Shown: positions 34,761-61,111 of the stretch, in pieces
How the letters are laid out: each line of letters starts with the position of its first letter
How positions within the stretch are numbered: the stretch's first letter is position 1
IMG/VR virus record: IMGVR_UViG_3300025137_000027
Location: 12,869-76,868 of that record
Length of the DNA stretch: 64,000 nt
Direction: 5' to 3' (one strand)
Source of the DNA: a virus
Program-made: the position numbers and the translations under genes
The notes under the pieces: generated by a model
The model's database searches: none
What the model was told of the DNA's origin: nothing
What the model saw: the letters and a program-made list of their open reading frames with translations, nothing else

Positions 34761-34953
34761 TCTTAAGGATATTAAGGGTTTCTGTTACTCTTCTAATTTC
34801 GGCTAAAAGCATATCGTGCTTCTCGCTACTAATATCTGGATCATGTAAGGAAAATGTAATTAGACGATCTAAATAGTCTAACCAATATAACCTTCTATGA
34901 TGCAAAGGGAGATGCTCGTATCGTGCGAACGAGGTATCATCGTATACTTTCAT
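34630..34953 (-). CDS. Hypothetical protein
   Basis: ORF starting at an ATGA overlap with the polA stop; the C-terminus overlaps the next gene. Confidence 0.45.
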   Translation of the reverse strand: MKVYDDTSFARYEHLPLHHRRLYWLDYLDRLITFSLHDPDISSEKHDMLLAEIRRVTETLNILKNEPSNRTIASASTPSTAKQKRAISTSRTDGDKNVRSRSKRGAV

Positions 34954-37922: not shown

Positions 37923-38432
37923 TTAATGGTTCGCTACTATCCCGCGTGCAGTAGATACTACTTCGTTAGCACCAGGGTTAGAGTAAGTCATATCTCCGTT
38001 CATAGGTACACGTGTAGCATCGGCTACTAGTGTGCGTCCGCTTCGGTCAAAGGCAGCTTTGATTGCCATATTGAACTCAGCCGAATTTGGATTACCTTGC
38101 ACAAAGCAAGTAGCATTGTTGCGAACTTCTCCGTTGATTTCATACGGAATAACTTCACGACGTACGATCTGACCTTCTACTACCATGCCAGGAGCGGCAT
38201 TCCATAGATAGTCAGAGACAGCAGACGAGTCGTCTTCGTCATAGAGATAGGGTACCTTGTAGCCAATGGTACGCACTGTCTTGCCTGGAGACAAGACTTG
38301 ATGGATTTCTCCTGTTGATGGATTGGTCCAACTTCCTTCTGTGGCAGTAGTGCCGAGTGTGACGCGTTTGTATTCGCGTCCGTTCTTGTCGCTACAAACT
38401 TCAGTAGCAACTACTTCAATCATGTTACTCAT
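37923..38432 (-). CDS. Hypothetical protein
   Basis: 169-aa ORF followed by a terminator. Confidence 0.65.
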   Translation of the reverse strand: MSNMIEVVATEVCSDKNGREYKRVTLGTTATEGSWTNPSTGEIHQVLSPGKTVRTIGYKVPYLYDEDDSSAVSDYLWNAAPGMVVEGQIVRREVIPYEINGEVRNNATCFVQGNPNSAEFNMAIKAAFDRSGRTLVADATRVPMNGDMTYSNPGANEVVSTARGIVANH

Positions 38433-38480
38433 GTTGATAGGTATTAAGGGTAAATAAAATTAAATATATCGAAATCTGAT

Positions 38481-38789
38481 ATGGCACGTAACTCATTAGC
38501 TGGTAAGGGCCGCACTTATAAGAAGCGTGGCATGACTGCGAGGAGTATCGCAAAGAAGCGTAAGTATGATGCTGAGTATCAGAAGAAACGATCCGCTGTT
38601 AAGAAGCGTGTCCAAGCTAATAGAGCTAATAGACGCGCTGGTACTTATGGTAATGGTGACGGTAAGGACGCCAGCCATAAGAAAGGAGGCAAGATTGTAA
38701 TGGAGAAAGCCTCCAAGAATCGAGCACGTAATGGTATGAAGAAAGGTCGTAAGCCTTCATCACGCCGTCGCAATACAAAAAAGAAATAA
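38481..38789 (+). CDS. Very basic small protein with degenerate HNH-like motif
   Basis: Lys/Arg-rich; GDGKDASHKK...KNRARN resembles small phage HNH-like proteins; lone + strand gene in the - strand block. Confidence 0.6.
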   Translation: MARNSLAGKGRTYKKRGMTARSIAKKRKYDAEYQKKRSAVKKRVQANRANRRAGTYGNGDGKDASHKKGGKIVMEKASKNRARNGMKKGRKPSSRRRNTKKK

Positions 38790-38925
38790 CCTACCGAGCG
38801 TTCCAACATCCCCTGCCTGCAAGCAAAGAGGAGCGTAATAAGCCTTTCAAACGGTTATTCCCTGATGTAAATGTCTTACAAGTGTCGGGGACTTGCTGCT
38901 ATGTAACAGTCCGAAGACAAGACAA

Positions 38926-38950
38926 AGCTGAGGGGTAGTCATATTGGGGG
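38926..38950 (-). promoter_or_regulatory. Candidate phage-specific promoter, copy 1 of a 25-nt repeat
   Basis: AGCTGAGGGGTAGTCATATTGGGGG, 21/25 identical to 41523-41547. Confidence 0.5.
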
Positions 38951-38951
38951 A

Positions 38952-38986
38952 GAAAAGCAAGAGGGCCAGCATCTCTGCTAGCCCTC
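38952..38986 (-). terminator. Rho-independent terminator with GAGA tetraloop
   Basis: Minus strand GAGGGCTAGCA-GAGA-TGCTGGCCCTC-TTGCTTTTC. Confidence 0.6.
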
Positions 38987-39133
38987 CGTCCTTTTACTAA
39001 TCCACCCTGTGGAACTACATTGGGTCAAGCTGTAGTAGGCTCGTAGACATAAACTACTTCTATAGGATAGGAACATGTAGTTACCCACCCTGTCTGCTGT
39101 GTGGTGCTATAATTAACCCTTAATACTGGCACG
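38952..39133 (-). ncRNA. Candidate ~180-nt small RNA with a four-way-junction (cloverleaf-like) core
   Basis: Bounded by a consensus promoter and a terminator; 8-bp stem 39013-39020/39075-39082 encloses three small hairpins; no convincing ORF. Confidence 0.45.
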
Positions 39134-39136
39134 AGC

Positions 39137-39168
39137 CAAATATACAAGAGTTGCATATAACTACCAAA
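39137..39168 (-). promoter_or_regulatory. Bacteroidota sigma70-type promoter (-33 TTTG / -7 TAnnTTTG)
   Basis: Minus strand TTTG (39168-39165), 20-nt spacer, TATATTTG (39144-39137): full consensus match. Confidence 0.75.
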
Positions 39169-39188
39169 CAACATATAGAAACTTTATA

Positions 39189-39437
39189 TTAGCTGTGCAT
39201 ATTGGTGACAGCAGTGTCCCAATTCATACCTCTTTTAAATATCTCAACTGGTTCAGTTAAGGTGTAAGAGCGTTCATCCATGCGATTGGCATTGGCATAA
39301 GACTTAGCTTCTGCTTCAGCTGCCCAGGGTGTATGGCTATAGAATGGTAGTCGTGAACCCTTATCTGTTTCGATAAGAACACACTTCCAAGTAGCCTTGC
39401 TAGACCACTTGCCGGATGTTTTAGCATTGGCTCCCAT
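39189..39437 (-). CDS. Hypothetical early protein
   Basis: 82-aa ORF, TAATG coupling. Confidence 0.6.
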   Translation of the reverse strand: MGANAKTSGKWSSKATWKCVLIETDKGSRLPFYSHTPWAAEAEAKSYANANRMDERSYTLTEPVEIFKRGMNWDTAVTNMHS

Positions 39438-39706
39438 TACTTCCCCATCTTTTGTTCGTACAGACGATCAGCTGCATCCTCAAAAGCTTCTGCTTTATTC
39501 GTGATGACAAGATCAGAGTCTTCAAGATGGGTACTGATACCCTCTCTGACACCACCTAAAGGTTCTAGCTTGTGCCTGATAAGAGCAACTGTATCAAGTT
39601 CGAGTGTCTCTTTATCTGGACACTCGCAGTCATCGTATGTCACGCATACGGTTATGTATACCTCACCACTAAATTGAGGTAAGGTGTAATCTTCGTTAGG
39701 ATTCAT
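39437..39706 (-). CDS. Hypothetical early protein
   Basis: 89-aa acidic ORF. Confidence 0.6.
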   Translation of the reverse strand: MNPNEDYTLPQFSGEVYITVCVTYDDCECPDKETLELDTVALIRHKLEPLGGVREGISTHLEDSDLVITNKAEAFEDAADRLYEQKMGK

Positions 39707-39737
39707 GTTACTTAATTTAAGGTTACTAATTTAAGAT

Positions 39738-39766
39738 AAAGGGACTGGCTTTTACACCAGCCCCTT
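39738..39766 (-). terminator. Probable terminator hairpin
   Basis: Minus strand GGGGCTGG-TGTAAAAG-CCAGTCCC-TTT. Confidence 0.5.
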
Positions 39767-39775
39767 CATCACCCC

Positions 39776-40147
39776 TTATTCATGGTAAGCCTTACCTAGA
39801 ATAGTGCGGTAATAATGACGCTCGGATTCAACTCGAGTACTTCTCCTGACATAGGAAAGAATACTGGAAGAAATAAGAGCGCCATATAAAGAGAACTTAA
39901 TCATAAACCATAGTATAGAGCTATCAGTTTGGATGTCTAGATACATAGAGAGTAACATACATCCAAAGGTTAGCCCATATGCTACGCGTTCGCTGATTTC
40001 TGCATCATCTAATAACTTGCAGAGCTTGAGTACTTGTACTCTGTGGTCGTCTGCCTGTTTGGGAGTCATGCCATCGAGTGGGTCAGGCAGCTGACTCCAG
40101 TTTAGTTTATTCAATGGGATGCTACGCTTATTGATTGACTTACTCAT
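39776..40147 (-). CDS. Hypothetical membrane protein (two TM helices)
   Basis: Hydrophobic VAYGLTFGCMLLSMYL and SILWFMIKFSLYGALISSSIL; probable start MSKSINK at an ATGA overlap. Confidence 0.6.
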   Translation of the reverse strand: MSKSINKRSIPLNKLNWSQLPDPLDGMTPKQADDHRVQVLKLCKLLDDAEISERVAYGLTFGCMLLSMYLDIQTDSSILWFMIKFSLYGALISSSILSYVRRSTRVESERHYYRTILGKAYHE

Positions 40148-40296: not shown

Positions 40297-40314
40297 GGCT
40301 TATAGAATAAAGGG

Positions 40315-40629
40315 TTAAAAGATAGGACAGTCTGCAACAGATATAGGCTGTGAATTAGGCTGAGGTTTCCATGCCTTGTAGTCATTGATGAGCTTATAGA
40401 CACATGCTTTATGAATTACATAAGCATCCATGTTCTCGATAGTATCGCACCTGGTCATGCCTTCTTTAATATCTGAAAGCATCTTGATGCGCGTTACAAG
40501 TCGTTGGCGTTCTACTTGTGAGCTAGTAAGGTTAGCTGAGAAGTCAGCTTCTCTCATGAACGTTTCACGTTCTTCGAGCTGCACACTGTAGTCATTGATA
40601 AGGTCTTGGGTGTAATTAGGAGTCCACAT
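40315..40629 (-). CDS. Hypothetical early protein
   Basis: 104-aa ORF. Confidence 0.6.
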   Translation of the reverse strand: MWTPNYTQDLINDYSVQLEERETFMREADFSANLTSSQVERQRLVTRIKMLSDIKEGMTRCDTIENMDAYVIHKACVYKLINDYKAWKPQPNSQPISVADCPIF

Positions 40630-41522: not shown

Positions 41523-41547
41523 AGCCGAAGGGTAGTTGTATTGGGGG
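41523..41547 (-). promoter_or_regulatory. Candidate phage-specific promoter, copy 2 of a 25-nt repeat
   Basis: AGCCGAAGGGTAGTTGTATTGGGGG, upstream of the first leftward gene at the divergence point. Confidence 0.5.
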
Positions 41548-47941: not shown

Positions 47942-49030
47942 ATGAGTGAAGAAAAATCATTGGATTTAAGCCAAGTTAGCGTAGCCAACTTGCTTAACAA
48001 TACGGGACAAACGGCAATTCCAACGCCCGAGCCAGAAGCAGTAGAAGAGCCAGAAGCAGTTGCTGAGACCCCCGAGGTTTCGGAAGAAGTGGAAGAGCAA
48101 GTAGAACAAGAAGAAGAAACGTCGGAAGACTCTGACGATTCTCCTGAAGTTCTTGCAGATACTGATACTGAAGCACCTGTAGAAGAAGATGTAAGTGTCA
48201 TCGATGTTTTAAAGTCCAAAATGGGCTACGAAATTGAAGGAGACTTTGCAGAAGACTACGACGGCGTTGCAAAGTTTGCAGATGCTGTAGCTCAAGAGAT
48301 TGCTAAAGAGCAGCTTGACACGGTATTCTCGCAATTTCCTGACGTAGAAGAGTACTTGCAGTTTCGTTACAACGGTGGCGATCCTAAACAATACTTTCAG
48401 GCAACCTCTCCTGTAGTAGACTATAGTGCTGTAGAGATAAGCGATGAAAACGTCGGTATCCAACGAGCTGTAGTAGAAGAGTTTTTACAACGCTCTGGGT
48501 ATACTAACGAAGAAGTTGCAGAAACAGTGCAGGACTACCTCGAGGCAGGCATTTTGCAGCGTCAGGCAACTAGAAGCTTAGGCAAGCTCCAACGGCTACA
48601 GGAGACTGAAGCTAAGGAAATTGTAGTAAAGCAAAAGCAGCAAGCGGAGCAGCGTCAAGAAGAAATGCAACAACAGTGGTCCTCTATTAAAGGCACCATT
48701 GATAAAGGCACAGTTAAAAACTTTGAAATCCCTACCTCTGATCGCAAGAAGTTTTATACTTGGATGAGCGAGGCGGTAGATAAACAAGGACGCACTCAGC
48801 GTCTAGTAGATAGAGAGCAAATGGACTTAGAAAGCCAAGTTGCTATGGAGTACTTGTTGTGGAAGAAGTTCGACCTCAACAAATTAGTAAGTAGTACTAA
48901 GAATACTAAAGCGGCACAGAACCTTAAGCAGAAACTGCAACAGAATAAACCCGCCTCACAGCGGATGAAGGGAGGTAAATCTTCTTTCAAAGCACCGAAG
49001 AAATTACCTTCATTGAAAGATCTTTTGTAA
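47942..49030 (+). CDS. Acidic scaffold-like protein
   Basis: Glu-rich disordered N-terminus and coiled coil; between portal and MCP. Confidence 0.65.
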   Translation: MSEEKSLDLSQVSVANLLNNTGQTAIPTPEPEAVEEPEAVAETPEVSEEVEEQVEQEEETSEDSDDSPEVLADTDTEAPVEEDVSVIDVLKSKMGYEIEGDFAEDYDGVAKFADAVAQEIAKEQLDTVFSQFPDVEEYLQFRYNGGDPKQYFQATSPVVDYSAVEISDENVGIQRAVVEEFLQRSGYTNEEVAETVQDYLEAGILQRQATRSLGKLQRLQETEAKEIVVKQKQQAEQRQEEMQQQWSSIKGTIDKGTVKNFEIPTSDRKKFYTWMSEAVDKQGRTQRLVDREQMDLESQVAMEYLLWKKFDLNKLVSSTKNTKAAQNLKQKLQQNKPASQRMKGGKSSFKAPKKLPSLKDLL

Positions 49031-49052
49031 CCCTTAATAATTAGTTTAAATC

Positions 49053-53274: not shown

Positions 53275-53296
53275 TATTACCCTTAATTTTTAAATC

Positions 53297-58956: not shown

Positions 58957-61092
58957 ATGGCAATCAAATTTGGAGACACCCTTGAAAATCAAAACACCAG
59001 CTACCCTATTGTAGATGTAGTTGGGGATAATATTGCGGGTGTGCATATTGTATCTGCTTTTGACAATACTCAGTTAGCTGCTATTCCAGTCAACGCTCGC
59101 AGACAAGGTTCTATTGTAATCAATACCGCTGACGGAAAGGTCTACATCTTTAAAGGCGGGACTGTTACGGGCAACGATAACAACAGCAATGCGTGGGGCC
59201 ATGCTGCAGGCACAAACTGGGTACCTGCAGGTAGCACTACTTTAGGTACTCCAACAGATGGAGACTTGACTGATGGTAACCCGGCAATCGGATCGTTTAC
59301 GGCGAGCACGACAATTGTAGATGCTATCGATTTATTGAATGAAACGCTGGGTTCTTTGGTTCCTACAGCTCCAACAGATTGGAATACATTTGAAAATGGC
59401 CTAGCTGCAAGTGCATTTGGAGTTCAGGCTAGTGCTAATGCTCGCCTTACTCCGAAGGACAGCAGTGGTAATAATATCACGCATGCAACAAATAACAGTG
59501 GCGCATCATATACAGCGGGTAGTGGCAGTAACACAGTAAACTGGGAGACTGATACTTCCATTAATGCAGAGTTTAGCCCTGGTTCTGTTGGGTCAGAAGG
59601 AGATAATGATCTAGCCCCTACTGTGCTAACCTTCCGACTGAACGACGAGTCTGTAACGCTAGCGTCCACTTCCGCAACATCTGCAACCTTGGCTGCTAAC
59701 CAAAATACTCATGGAGGAGCAATTACTTTAGCGGTAACTTATGGCAACTTCCCAACTACAGGTGACTCTGCAGGATTCTATCAAGGAATAGATAAAGTAG
59801 AACTAGATATTGGGGCCTCTCTTCTGCAAGGATTCCACAAACTCACCCTTGAGGATGCCTCCAACAATGGCATAAGCAATACTATTTATAGAGCACCTAG
59901 CTCAACCGATATTTCTGTTACTGCAGTTGGGGTTGCAACAGACGCTGGAGATAATATTTATATGAGTGGTCAAAAGTTTTGGACCAGACCAACATACCTA
60001 CCTAGCGCAGTAGCAGTACAAACAATTATACCGTCATCCGCACTGGTATACGGCGCTACCTCAAGCGCAACTAATAATACCTTCTTGACGTCCACGAATG
60101 GAGATATCTTTCCTGCACTAGCTTCTAAAAGCTACACAGATATTAGTGGCGTTACTTCTGTAGACGATTTACGTTTAAATCAATCTGTTACTTTTGGAAA
60201 TTCTGACTATTCTTCAGTTACGGCTGTCGCAGGGACGAAGGGATTTAAAGATTTGAATGGTGTGAGCAACAGTAATGTTCCTAAGATTAACGGTCTTTCT
60301 ATACATGGTAATGATCTTAACAACAGAGTCTCTGCTGCAGGCGCTAACTATGCTTTTTGGGATAAAGGCAGCGTTGCACAATCGCTTGCAAACCTCTACC
60401 CTTATGAGGACAATTTGTATACCGACTTGCACTCAACCGATAATGAAGGTGAGCGCGTAGTTGACCCAGATGCTATTACTGGTACTTATGTAGACAATCC
60501 AAGTGACGCAGTATCAGCTTATACTCTATGGAGTCCCCAGTACGGTAACAACACTAGTGGTTCTTTATCTCTAGATGCACAGGATGCTATTACCTGTATT
60601 AATTCTGCAGGCACTTCTTTAGAGTGTGCTCATGAACTGCGCAACTTTACTAGCGGATATACGTTTGCTGCATCTGCACAAAACTTTAGCGGTCGTACAA
60701 GTGGTACTGCCCAATACGTTACTTATCGCTTCCCTATCAATGGGACATCTGTTGCAACTGTTTACTTGAAGTTTCAGGGAGACTTAGACGGAGGTGGTGA
60801 CGTCTTCATCAAAATCTTTGACGGTGCTGGGGCCACAAACCTAGAAGGAGCTAACTCTTCTACAGGAGGCTGGATGCCAGCTACTTTAAATGGTACCAGC
60901 AATGGTAATGTACCAGTAGGAGGGTGTGCTTCAGGAACGCCTCTTTCTAAAACAGCAACAAGCTTACAAACTGTAGCTCTTAATGCTGGAGGGGCACGAT
61001 GGGAAACCGGCAGTGATAATTTTATCTATGTACGAGTCAAGCTAAAAGCAGGTGACTACGTGCGTAAAATCGGACTGTGTGCTACGGCCTAA
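58957..61092 (+). CDS. Tail fibre/spike-like protein
   Basis: 711 aa, Ser/Thr/Gly/Asn-rich; LGTPTDGDLTDG and DAIDLLNE motifs. Confidence 0.6.
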   Translation: MAIKFGDTLENQNTSYPIVDVVGDNIAGVHIVSAFDNTQLAAIPVNARRQGSIVINTADGKVYIFKGGTVTGNDNNSNAWGHAAGTNWVPAGSTTLGTPTDGDLTDGNPAIGSFTASTTIVDAIDLLNETLGSLVPTAPTDWNTFENGLAASAFGVQASANARLTPKDSSGNNITHATNNSGASYTAGSGSNTVNWETDTSINAEFSPGSVGSEGDNDLAPTVLTFRLNDESVTLASTSATSATLAANQNTHGGAITLAVTYGNFPTTGDSAGFYQGIDKVELDIGASLLQGFHKLTLEDASNNGISNTIYRAPSSTDISVTAVGVATDAGDNIYMSGQKFWTRPTYLPSAVAVQTIIPSSALVYGATSSATNNTFLTSTNGDIFPALASKSYTDISGVTSVDDLRLNQSVTFGNSDYSSVTAVAGTKGFKDLNGVSNSNVPKINGLSIHGNDLNNRVSAAGANYAFWDKGSVAQSLANLYPYEDNLYTDLHSTDNEGERVVDPDAITGTYVDNPSDAVSAYTLWSPQYGNNTSGSLSLDAQDAITCINSAGTSLECAHELRNFTSGYTFAASAQNFSGRTSGTAQYVTYRFPINGTSVATVYLKFQGDLDGGGDVFIKIFDGAGATNLEGANSSTGGWMPATLNGTSNGNVPVGGCASGTPLSKTATSLQTVALNAGGARWETGSDNFIYVRVKLKAGDYVRKIGLCATA

Positions 61093-61111
61093 TCCTTAAT
61101 ATCTACAAACA

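Follow-up and report, generated by a model that had tools for sequence, protein, structure and literature searches.

A small RNA of about 165–184 nt is encoded on the minus strand of the window, by which we mean the whole 64,000-nt stretch of viral DNA analysed here, and it almost certainly belongs to a genuine, structured and abundant sRNA family. The family is new and has no Rfam counterpart. Its members share a pseudoknotted body with compensatory base changes and an invariant loop sequence complementary to a motif that lies upstream of phage start codons. We tentatively favour the view that the RNA acts in trans, by base pairing, on translation initiation of the phage's own mRNAs; its most likely pairing partner would be the UAACCCUUAAUA element of phage leaders.

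The sRNA gene and its genomic setting

The window covers bases 12869–76868 of a 76.9-kb viral record judged 96% complete, and its source is an uncultured marine crAss-like (Crassvirales-related) phage clade of Bacteroidota. The genome has a terminase, portal and major head protein with crAss-type PHROG matches, a family-A DNA polymerase, a helicase and a 4910-aa virion protein, and its capsid protein shares ~34% identity with its counterparts in crAss002 and related phages. Relatives originate from marine viromes and metagenomes, TARA samples among them. The sRNA gene lies at ~52 kb of the record, in a 400-nt gap with convergent genes on either side, early genes to one side and replication genes to the other; two long minus-strand gene blocks border it. 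The main features of the locus are as follows.

38481–38789, plus strand: basic 102-aa gene, one flank of the 400-nt gap.
38952–39135, minus strand: sRNA gene, ~165–184 nt, as defined by homologues, covariance-model matches and RNA-library contigs.
38953–38995, minus strand: bidirectional intrinsic terminator, composed of an A-tract, GAGGGCUAGCA, GAGA, UGCUGGCCCUC and a U-tract.
39138–39169, minus strand: Bacteroidota-type promoter, with a −33 TTTG (39169–39166), a 20-nt spacer and a −7 box TATATTTG (39145–39138).
39189–39437, minus strand: 82-aa gene, the other flank of the gap.

The preliminary description had proposed a novel phage ncRNA between a leftward promoter and a GAGA-loop terminator. 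Both signals are present in the sequence, and the ncRNA itself is now backed by conservation and covariation, by contigs from RNA libraries and by the absence of any conserved ORF. A scan returned an overlapping sigma70-like match as well (TTGGTA-17-TATATT), and relatives keep both promoter boxes imperfectly, with TTGG or CTTG at the first and TATATTTG, TATATTAG, TACATTAG or TATCTTCA at the second. The 5′ end of the RNA maps near 39132–39135, where an RNA-library contig end at 39132 is ~6 nt beyond the −7 box, and the 3′ end falls within the U-tract at 38953–38960. The terminator hairpin (12 bp, GAGA loop, T-rich tail; 38987–38960) was recovered independently by a terminator scan. In the 20-homologue alignment it is 99.5% paired, with 7 of its 11 pairs altered on both sides, and its tetraloop is of the GNRA class on the sRNA strand (GAGA, GGGA, GUAA) in all types except F, which has a long insert there. 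A direct repeat, ACAGGGTGG, had also been pointed out at 39002–39010 and 39085–39093; both copies exist, yet they fall in different helices of the fold described below (the P2 5′ strand versus the P6 loop and 3′ strand) and are not retained as a repeat in relatives.

Several observations concern the neighbourhood of the gene. Directly after the terminator, at 38926–38950 on the minus strand, lies a ~25-nt C-rich motif (CCCCCAAUA..ACUACCC.UC.GC) that recurs where the leftward early block begins, at 41523–41547; a sequence resembling it also follows the terminator in some relatives (types C and F). The flanking basic 102-aa protein belongs to PHROG 6437 and shows 90% identity between clades whose neighbouring proteins share only ~44%. 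It has no match to a Pfam, PDB or RNA-binding family, and its nearest named Atlas clusters are HNH-like, which is a weak lead.

Homologues and coding potential

Relatives' loci were retrieved through the neighbouring 169-aa protein. Intergenic conservation (69–79%) is confined to 38953–39148, from the −7 box through the terminator, and a two-block pattern built from the conserved parts recovered further copies in viral and metagenome contigs. After de-duplication there are 20 distinct homologues of about 8 types, with 69–99% identity and covariance-model scores of 84–231 bits. Invariant blocks (AUUAAGGGUUA, UGGGU, AGAAGUAGU and AAAAGGA) are interleaved with variable stretches and indels of 1–5 nt, a patchy pattern like that of a structured RNA.

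Outside this group the searches were negative. A DNA search of INPHARED phages with 1.1 kb around the RNA gave no match; nearly all matches in a 14-nt pattern scan of viral contigs were due to chance, and a combined-pattern scan gave 4 chance matches, in coding sequence. Bacterial genome contigs yielded 26 pattern matches and none was confirmed by profile, so that no bacterial copy was found at this sensitivity. Rfam 15, searched over 38300–39800 with E up to 10, gave nothing on the RNA's strand and nothing that approached a gathering score; the sole overlaps were weak plus-strand chance matches, which scored 14.6 and 13.4 bits where the gathering scores are 55 and 62. The preliminary description had anticipated no canonical match from Rfam or ARAGORN, and none was obtained. 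Our literature search found no earlier description of this RNA.

Minus-strand short ORFs of 32–49 codons can be read in the window, among them a 32-codon frame (MFLSYRSS...) whose conservation would have pointed to a small protein-coding gene. This frame is missing from type B and from most relatives, no other frame is maintained, and in types E, F and G no ATG-initiated ORF on the sRNA strand exceeds 16 codons. Homologues also differ by indels of 1, 2, 4 and 5 nt. The probability that the conserved element is a small coding gene, in this frame or any other, is negligible.

Contigs from RNA libraries

Four metatranscriptome runs from three studies contain the sRNA stretch. In run X4, contigs confined to 38992–39117 reach depths of 189, 80 and 63, compared with 3–13 for flanking-gene contigs, and in run X5, from the same study, the sRNA stretch has a depth of 68 versus 2–7 for the flanks. 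Assembled contigs give no strand, no exact ends and one depth per contig, making them a poor measure of expression, and DNA may occur in metatranscriptome libraries; the local excess of 10–25-fold over the flanks in X4 and X5 nevertheless argues against a uniform DNA background. Run X19 holds a single 168-nt contig over 38968–39132, and X20 a 167-nt contig of a relative, equivalent to 38954–39106; the ends of the two fit transcription that starts ~6 nt past the −7 box and stops at the terminator. Neither X4 nor X5 has coverage at 38912–38962, which would fit two-sided termination, though contigs cannot prove absence.

Several contigs in two RNA libraries of one study end at 39117/39118, inside the GGG of the invariant loop, and in one of them the adapter follows directly. 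These ends may stem from processing or cleavage of the loop, from fragment ends in the library or from breaks in the assembly.

A conserved fold with an H-type pseudoknot

A MAFFT alignment and a first model misaligned P2, P6 and PK1 in types C–H. They were replaced by a covariance model built from types A and B only, containing nested helices, which was used to align all 20 homologues. The helices of the resulting model are listed here.

39104–39132, minus strand: P1 (weak), GUGC/GCAC, closing the invariant loop; UGC/GCA is pairable in types A, B, D, F and H, and 2–3 bp remain in C, E and G.
39065–39090, minus strand: P2, GGGUGGG (39090–39084) with CCUAUCC (39071–39065); its loop, YCCAAUUG, is conserved in relatives.
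39043–39057, minus strand: P3, GUAG, a 7-nt loop and CUAC; 100% paired, with changes from G-C to G-U only.
39014–39042, minus strand: P4 hairpin, GAGC (39042–39039) with GCUU (39030–39027), together with PK1; P4 is 100% paired, with 2 compensatory pairs.
39002–39012, minus strand: P6 hairpin, CCAC, AGG and GUGG; six different helix sequences occur across types, and 90% of cells are paired.

Across the conserved-fold model, 94.0% of pairs are standard, compared with 85.7% in shuffles and 38–46% with slid partners, and 22 of 44 pairs are altered on both sides, against 9.9 ± 1.7 in shuffles (none of 500 shuffles reaches 22). We also applied a strand-swap test, in which 5′ and 3′ strands are exchanged between sequence types and cognate and non-cognate pairing are compared. 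Permutation p values were <2e-4 for P2, PK1, P6 and the terminator and 0.004 for P4; the test gave no support for P1 (p = 0.29) or for pairing between the P2 loop and the 3′ tail (p = 0.30).

P2 joins the invariant UGGGU and its flanks to a variable strand of ACCYA type; pairing holds in 89% of cells, and 5 of its 9 pairs are altered on both sides. The data for P3 are consistent with pairing without proving it. P6 is longer in relatives and often has GNRA-like loops. Besides the invariant 5′ loop, the conserved loops are YCCAAUUG in P2 and UNUAYRU. In PK1 the P4 loop ACUACA (39036–39031) pairs with UGUAGU (39019–39014) across an A-rich linker; the partner strand begins 3–8 nt after P4. PK1 is 88.6% paired, 6 of its 7 pairs are altered on both sides, and the cognate duplex is at −9.4 kcal/mol versus −5.3 kcal/mol for the non-cognate one. 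The aligning model did not contain PK1, so its pairing carries no fitting bias. PK1 is a classic H-type pseudoknot with an A-rich third loop, maintained by compensatory change. The G-U pairs, GNRA loops, promoter and terminator together assign the RNA to the minus strand.

Two other pairings were considered and rejected. A second pseudoknot between CAAUU of the P2 loop and GAUUG of the tail survives several transitions; it fails in type H and lacks permutation support (p = 0.30). In several minimum-energy folds the GGG of the invariant loop makes a long-range pairing with C-rich sites, and its partner varies by type.

The core had previously been drawn as a tRNA-like cloverleaf, possibly a tRNA mimic or a decoy for anticodon nucleases. 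In the window's own sequence this drawing is possible: an 8-bp stem (AACUACAU/AUGUAGUU) closes three arms, one of which has a 7-nt loop, and all four stems can be formed. Two of the arms stand, since GUAG/CUAC is P3 and GAGC/GCUU is P4, and both are fully paired in the 20 homologues. The closing stem and the first arm (UUCCUAU-CCU-AUAGAA) are not conserved, with standard pairs in 56.7% and 62.5% of cells, respectively, and the former is specific to the window's own type. In all lineages, what was drawn as the 3′ strand of an acceptor-like stem pairs with the P4 loop, as PK1, and the stem appears illusory because the P2 loop happens to complement the PK1 3′ strand in the window's type. Covariation among related phages, which had been suggested as a check, thus revealed compensatory changes in a fold different from the cloverleaf, with the competing P2 and PK1 pairings covarying. 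Variants of the P3 loop (UUUAUGU, UAUACAU, UCUACGU and UCUACAC) have U, A or C at position 2, and the U33/anticodon-loop pattern is not conserved in this 7-nt loop. ARAGORN predicts no tRNA gene in the whole window, there is no CCA end, and the 3′ end is a terminator; neither a canonical T-loop nor a D-loop motif was found, in agreement with the earlier statement that the RNA is not a tRNA. It resembles tRNAs and tRNA-like RNAs in size, in the multi-arm look of one sequence and in a 4-bp stem with a 7-nt loop, but fails every defining feature tested. A cloverleaf mimic or decoy is exceedingly improbable on this evidence, and we regard that reading as essentially refuted.

A putative seed loop and its complement in phage leaders

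The loop of the 5′ hairpin is a putative seed. Eleven of its bases, corresponding to alignment columns A12–A22, are invariant, and their complement, UAACCCUUAAU(A), is the source of the 6-mers most enriched upstream of phage start codons; these bases are complementary to TAACCCTTAAT, and the loop matches exactly, as its complement, the motif with the strongest enrichment 10–21 nt before the starts. Motif discovery was blind to the RNA and used windows from −30 to −5 of 72 called genes. The top 6-mer, CCTTAA, occurred 8 times against 0.53 expected (p = 7e-8), and ACCCTT, CTTAAT and CCCTTA were also high. CCCTTAA has 6 copies in the genome, both strands counted; four are in sense at −35 to +5 of start codons and a fifth is the sRNA gene. 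Motif sites precede at least 7 genes, always in sense, ~9 to 25 nt before the ATG and mostly at −21 to −11. The seed and the leaders that match it are listed below.

39114–39127, minus strand: seed loop AGUAUUAAGGGUUA; AUUAAGGGUUA (39124–39114) is invariant in 20/20 homologues.
49028–49038, plus strand: putative target in the leader of the major capsid gene (ATG 49053), TAACCCTTAAT(A), a 12/12 complement of the seed 14–25 nt before the ATG, −15.1 kcal/mol.
38443–38453, minus strand: putative target, 169-aa gene (ATG 38432), −15.5 kcal/mol; 10–13 pairable positions are kept in relatives.
34771–34781, minus strand: putative target, 253-aa gene (ATG 34760), −15.3 kcal/mol.
61090–61100, plus strand: putative target, 715-aa tail-fibre-like gene (ATG 61112; PHROG tail-fibre match), −14.0 kcal/mol.
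40307–40317, minus strand: putative target, 50-aa gene (ATG 40296), −11.6 kcal/mol.
53277–53287, plus strand: putative target, 272-aa gene (ATG 53297), −11.0 kcal/mol.
39715–39725, minus strand: weaker putative target TAACCTTAAAT, 89-aa gene (ATG 39706).

The 169-aa and 253-aa genes belong to the replication block, and the other targets include small early genes. Predicted duplexes at or below −12 kcal/mol were obtained for 4 of 72 sense windows, as against 0.6% of random windows and none of the 72 antisense windows. The signal is specific to the seed; 7-mers complementary to other parts of the sRNA are not enriched upstream of starts. In relatives, AACCCT was observed 11 times against 0.63 expected in 147 windows, the motif rate was 6.8% versus 1.65%, and the motif is retained before the capsid gene and the 169-aa gene. 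The seed itself never varies across homologues; one difference in its flank (U to A, type B) is uncompensated in the homologous leader. In nested folds, with P1 weak, the seed has an unpaired probability of 0.34–0.60.

No structure is predicted in the motif-bearing leaders, which have no −35-like block in common; some of them overlap the stop codon of the upstream gene, and that of the 169-aa gene has a conserved −7 box immediately before its motif. These properties identify the leader motif as a putative RNA-level element of the initiation region rather than a promoter. The 16S rRNA of Flavobacterium (one genome, not known as a host) offers no good complement to the motif, the best being an internal site at −10.1 kcal/mol, and a search of five Bacteroidota genomes with the seed gave counts like those of the control and no multi-copy, rRNA-like site.

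The motif of the 169-aa gene lies in a 48-nt divergent gap (window 38441–38453 in plus-strand view). The upstream region of the basic 102-aa gene thus carries GTATTAAGGGTAA, which is similar to the seed, 26–38 nt before its ATG. A further observation concerns TGTTAAGGGTTA and GATTAAGGGTTA, which occur in a Dyadobacter genome (G002, reached via L220) as dozens of clustered pairs on both strands; this looks like a dispersed short repeat and is unrelated.

Sister clades and wider relatives

In a sister clade whose terminase is 77% identical, this sRNA is absent, and no CCC or C-rich motif is among the top upstream 6-mers. The same locus there has a different RNA candidate of ~150 nt (L280:2715-2866 on the locus's minus strand, and L282:734-974), flanked by homologues of the basic 102-aa gene and the 82-aa gene. 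It has a similar promoter (…GTATATTTG) and a UUCG-capped terminator and is conserved between the two contigs; our covariance model does not detect it, and its complementarity to the leaders of that clade is not significant. Among the early leftward genes of a more distant relative, whose terminase is 67% identical, is an ORF-free gap of 437 nt (L292:4308-4744) that may hold other ncRNAs.

AU-rich cousins of the leader motif, UAAUCUUUAAUA and AACCUUUA, precede capsid genes in wider clades without this sRNA. The motif itself therefore probably plays a part in initiation, and the sRNA may be only one of its readers or modulators. Cellulophaga phage phi14:2 has no sRNA homologue (covariance-model score 11 bits, E = 0.46), and the leader motif is absent there too.

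Possible function and alternative explanations

Under the base-pairing reading that we tentatively favour, the invariant loop would serve as a seed that pairs in trans with the unstructured leaders of phage mRNAs, namely those of the capsid gene, the tail-fibre-like gene, the two replication-block genes and the small early genes. Pairing would change how readily the 30S subunit reaches the start site, or what becomes of the mRNA; because pairing at −21 to −11 falls within the ribosome footprint, the simplest effect would be repression or timing. The pseudoknotted 3′ domain could supply stability or a platform for protein binding. Several points weigh against this reading. The invariance of the seed precludes a test of seed–target covariation, and the single flank change, in type B, has no counterpart in the leader. 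AU-rich forms of the motif stand before capsid genes where the sRNA is absent; P1, supposed to present the seed, has no covariation support; nested-only folds pair the GGG with various C-rich sites in some types; and a conserved, pseudoknotted domain of ~100 nt exceeds the needs of a simple antisense RNA.

This last point is the strength of a second, less probable explanation, in which a structured RNA binds a protein or machine (host RNA polymerase, the ribosome, a nuclease or a phage protein) through its pseudoknotted body, and the loop match is secondary or coincidental. Most of the covarying structure (P2, P3, P4/PK1, P6 and the conserved loops) is superfluous for antisense pairing, and an abundance far above that of neighbouring mRNAs fits a stoichiometric RNP or a sponge; very abundant ncRNAs are also reported from the related phage phi14:2 (bioRxiv 10.1101/2020.03.07.982082). 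It leaves unexplained, however, a 12/12 complement of the top upstream motif that is found in sense only, and nothing points to a partner protein; the neighbouring basic 102-aa gene matches no RNA-binding family. We consider it very unlikely that the RNA is instead a cis-acting leader or attenuator, whose promoter, structured RNA and terminator would switch leftward read-through into the replication operon that starts at 38432. The location between two long minus-strand blocks and the unusually conserved terminator would suit such a role, but the convergent plus-strand gene (38481–38789) follows the terminator and read-through would be antisense to it, the 169-aa gene possesses its own conserved −7 box, and we saw no conserved antiterminator pairing to the 5′ strand of the terminator. 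Equally doubtful is a DNA-level explanation, in which TAACCCTTAAT is a protein site on double-stranded DNA that also occurs inside the sRNA region, by the bidirectional terminator, and the RNA is a by-product. On DNA the motif and its reverse complement are indeed one site, and the flanks (TTAA...TTAA) are symmetric. Five helices with compensatory changes, G-U pairs and strand-specific GNRA loops nevertheless indicate selection on RNA, and motifs near genes occur in sense without exception, their distance to the ATG being fixed even across an upstream stop codon, and have no −35-like block in common.

Bacteroidota ribosomes rarely rely on Shine-Dalgarno pairing. Against this background one may also imagine, as an improbable variant, a phage-supplied initiation adaptor, in which the loop of an abundant RNA would read the UAACCCUUAAUA mark while the pseudoknotted body docks on the 30S subunit or protein S1. 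The mark would then designate genes that need fresh initiation, the capsid gene most strongly, and an anti-leader sequence would be supplied in trans in favour of phage mRNAs.

Comparison with known systems

Classic H-type pseudoknots with an A-rich loop 3 occur in frameshift signals, telomerase RNA and the preQ1 and SAM-II riboswitches. PK1 shares their architecture, with a stem 1 of 4–5 bp, a loop 1 of 1–3 nt, a stem 2 of 5–7 bp stacked on stem 1 and an A-rich loop 3 of 3–8 nt; it differs in belonging to a free-standing sRNA and not to coding sequence or the leader of a gene. A relationship to phi29-type pRNA was considered and rejected, as there is no Rfam match, the gene is not at a genome end, and the covarying loop pairs 11–14 nt downstream in the same molecule, not intermolecularly.

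Multi-target sRNAs that bind upstream of start codons include GcvB, with its G/U-rich seed and C/A-rich enhancer elements, and Bacteroides sRNAs such as GibS. The RNA described here has in common with them its own promoter, an intrinsic terminator and a short, conserved, putatively single-stranded G-rich seed matched to a C-rich motif upstream of several starts. It bears no sequence or Rfam relationship to them, is encoded by a phage and putatively aimed at that phage's own genes of all temporal classes, and has a large, covarying, pseudoknotted body.

Phage antisense RNAs that act in trans on their own genes are also familiar, in the form of P1/P7 c4 RNA, P22 Sar and P4 CI RNA. These too are small phage RNAs with loops complementary to regions near the ribosome-binding sites of phage mRNAs. 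In temperate phages they act within one immunity operon, at one or two sites; the sRNA of the window has no homology to them, and here at least 7 dispersed leaders carry the motif, in a crAss-like genome of lytic type. If the pairing is real, this would be a rare case of a lytic phage with one sRNA addressing an initiation motif that early, replication and structural genes have in common, and one would have to ask how phage mRNAs come to be translated in hosts not dependent on Shine-Dalgarno pairing.

The ncRNAs of crAss-like phages are almost unstudied, and the sole report that we found concerns Cellulophaga phage phi14:2, a crAss-like phage whose intergenic ncRNAs, of unknown function, exceed most mRNAs in abundance (bioRxiv 10.1101/2020.03.07.982082). 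Phage order, host phylum and the presence of abundant non-coding transcripts are the same in the two cases. The phi14:2 RNAs differ in coming from a 1.7-kb region near the genome start, in a phage with neither a covariance-model homologue nor the leader motif; the sRNA presented here adds a defined family, with a covariation-backed structure, evidence of abundance in the sea and a concrete set of phage leaders as putative targets.
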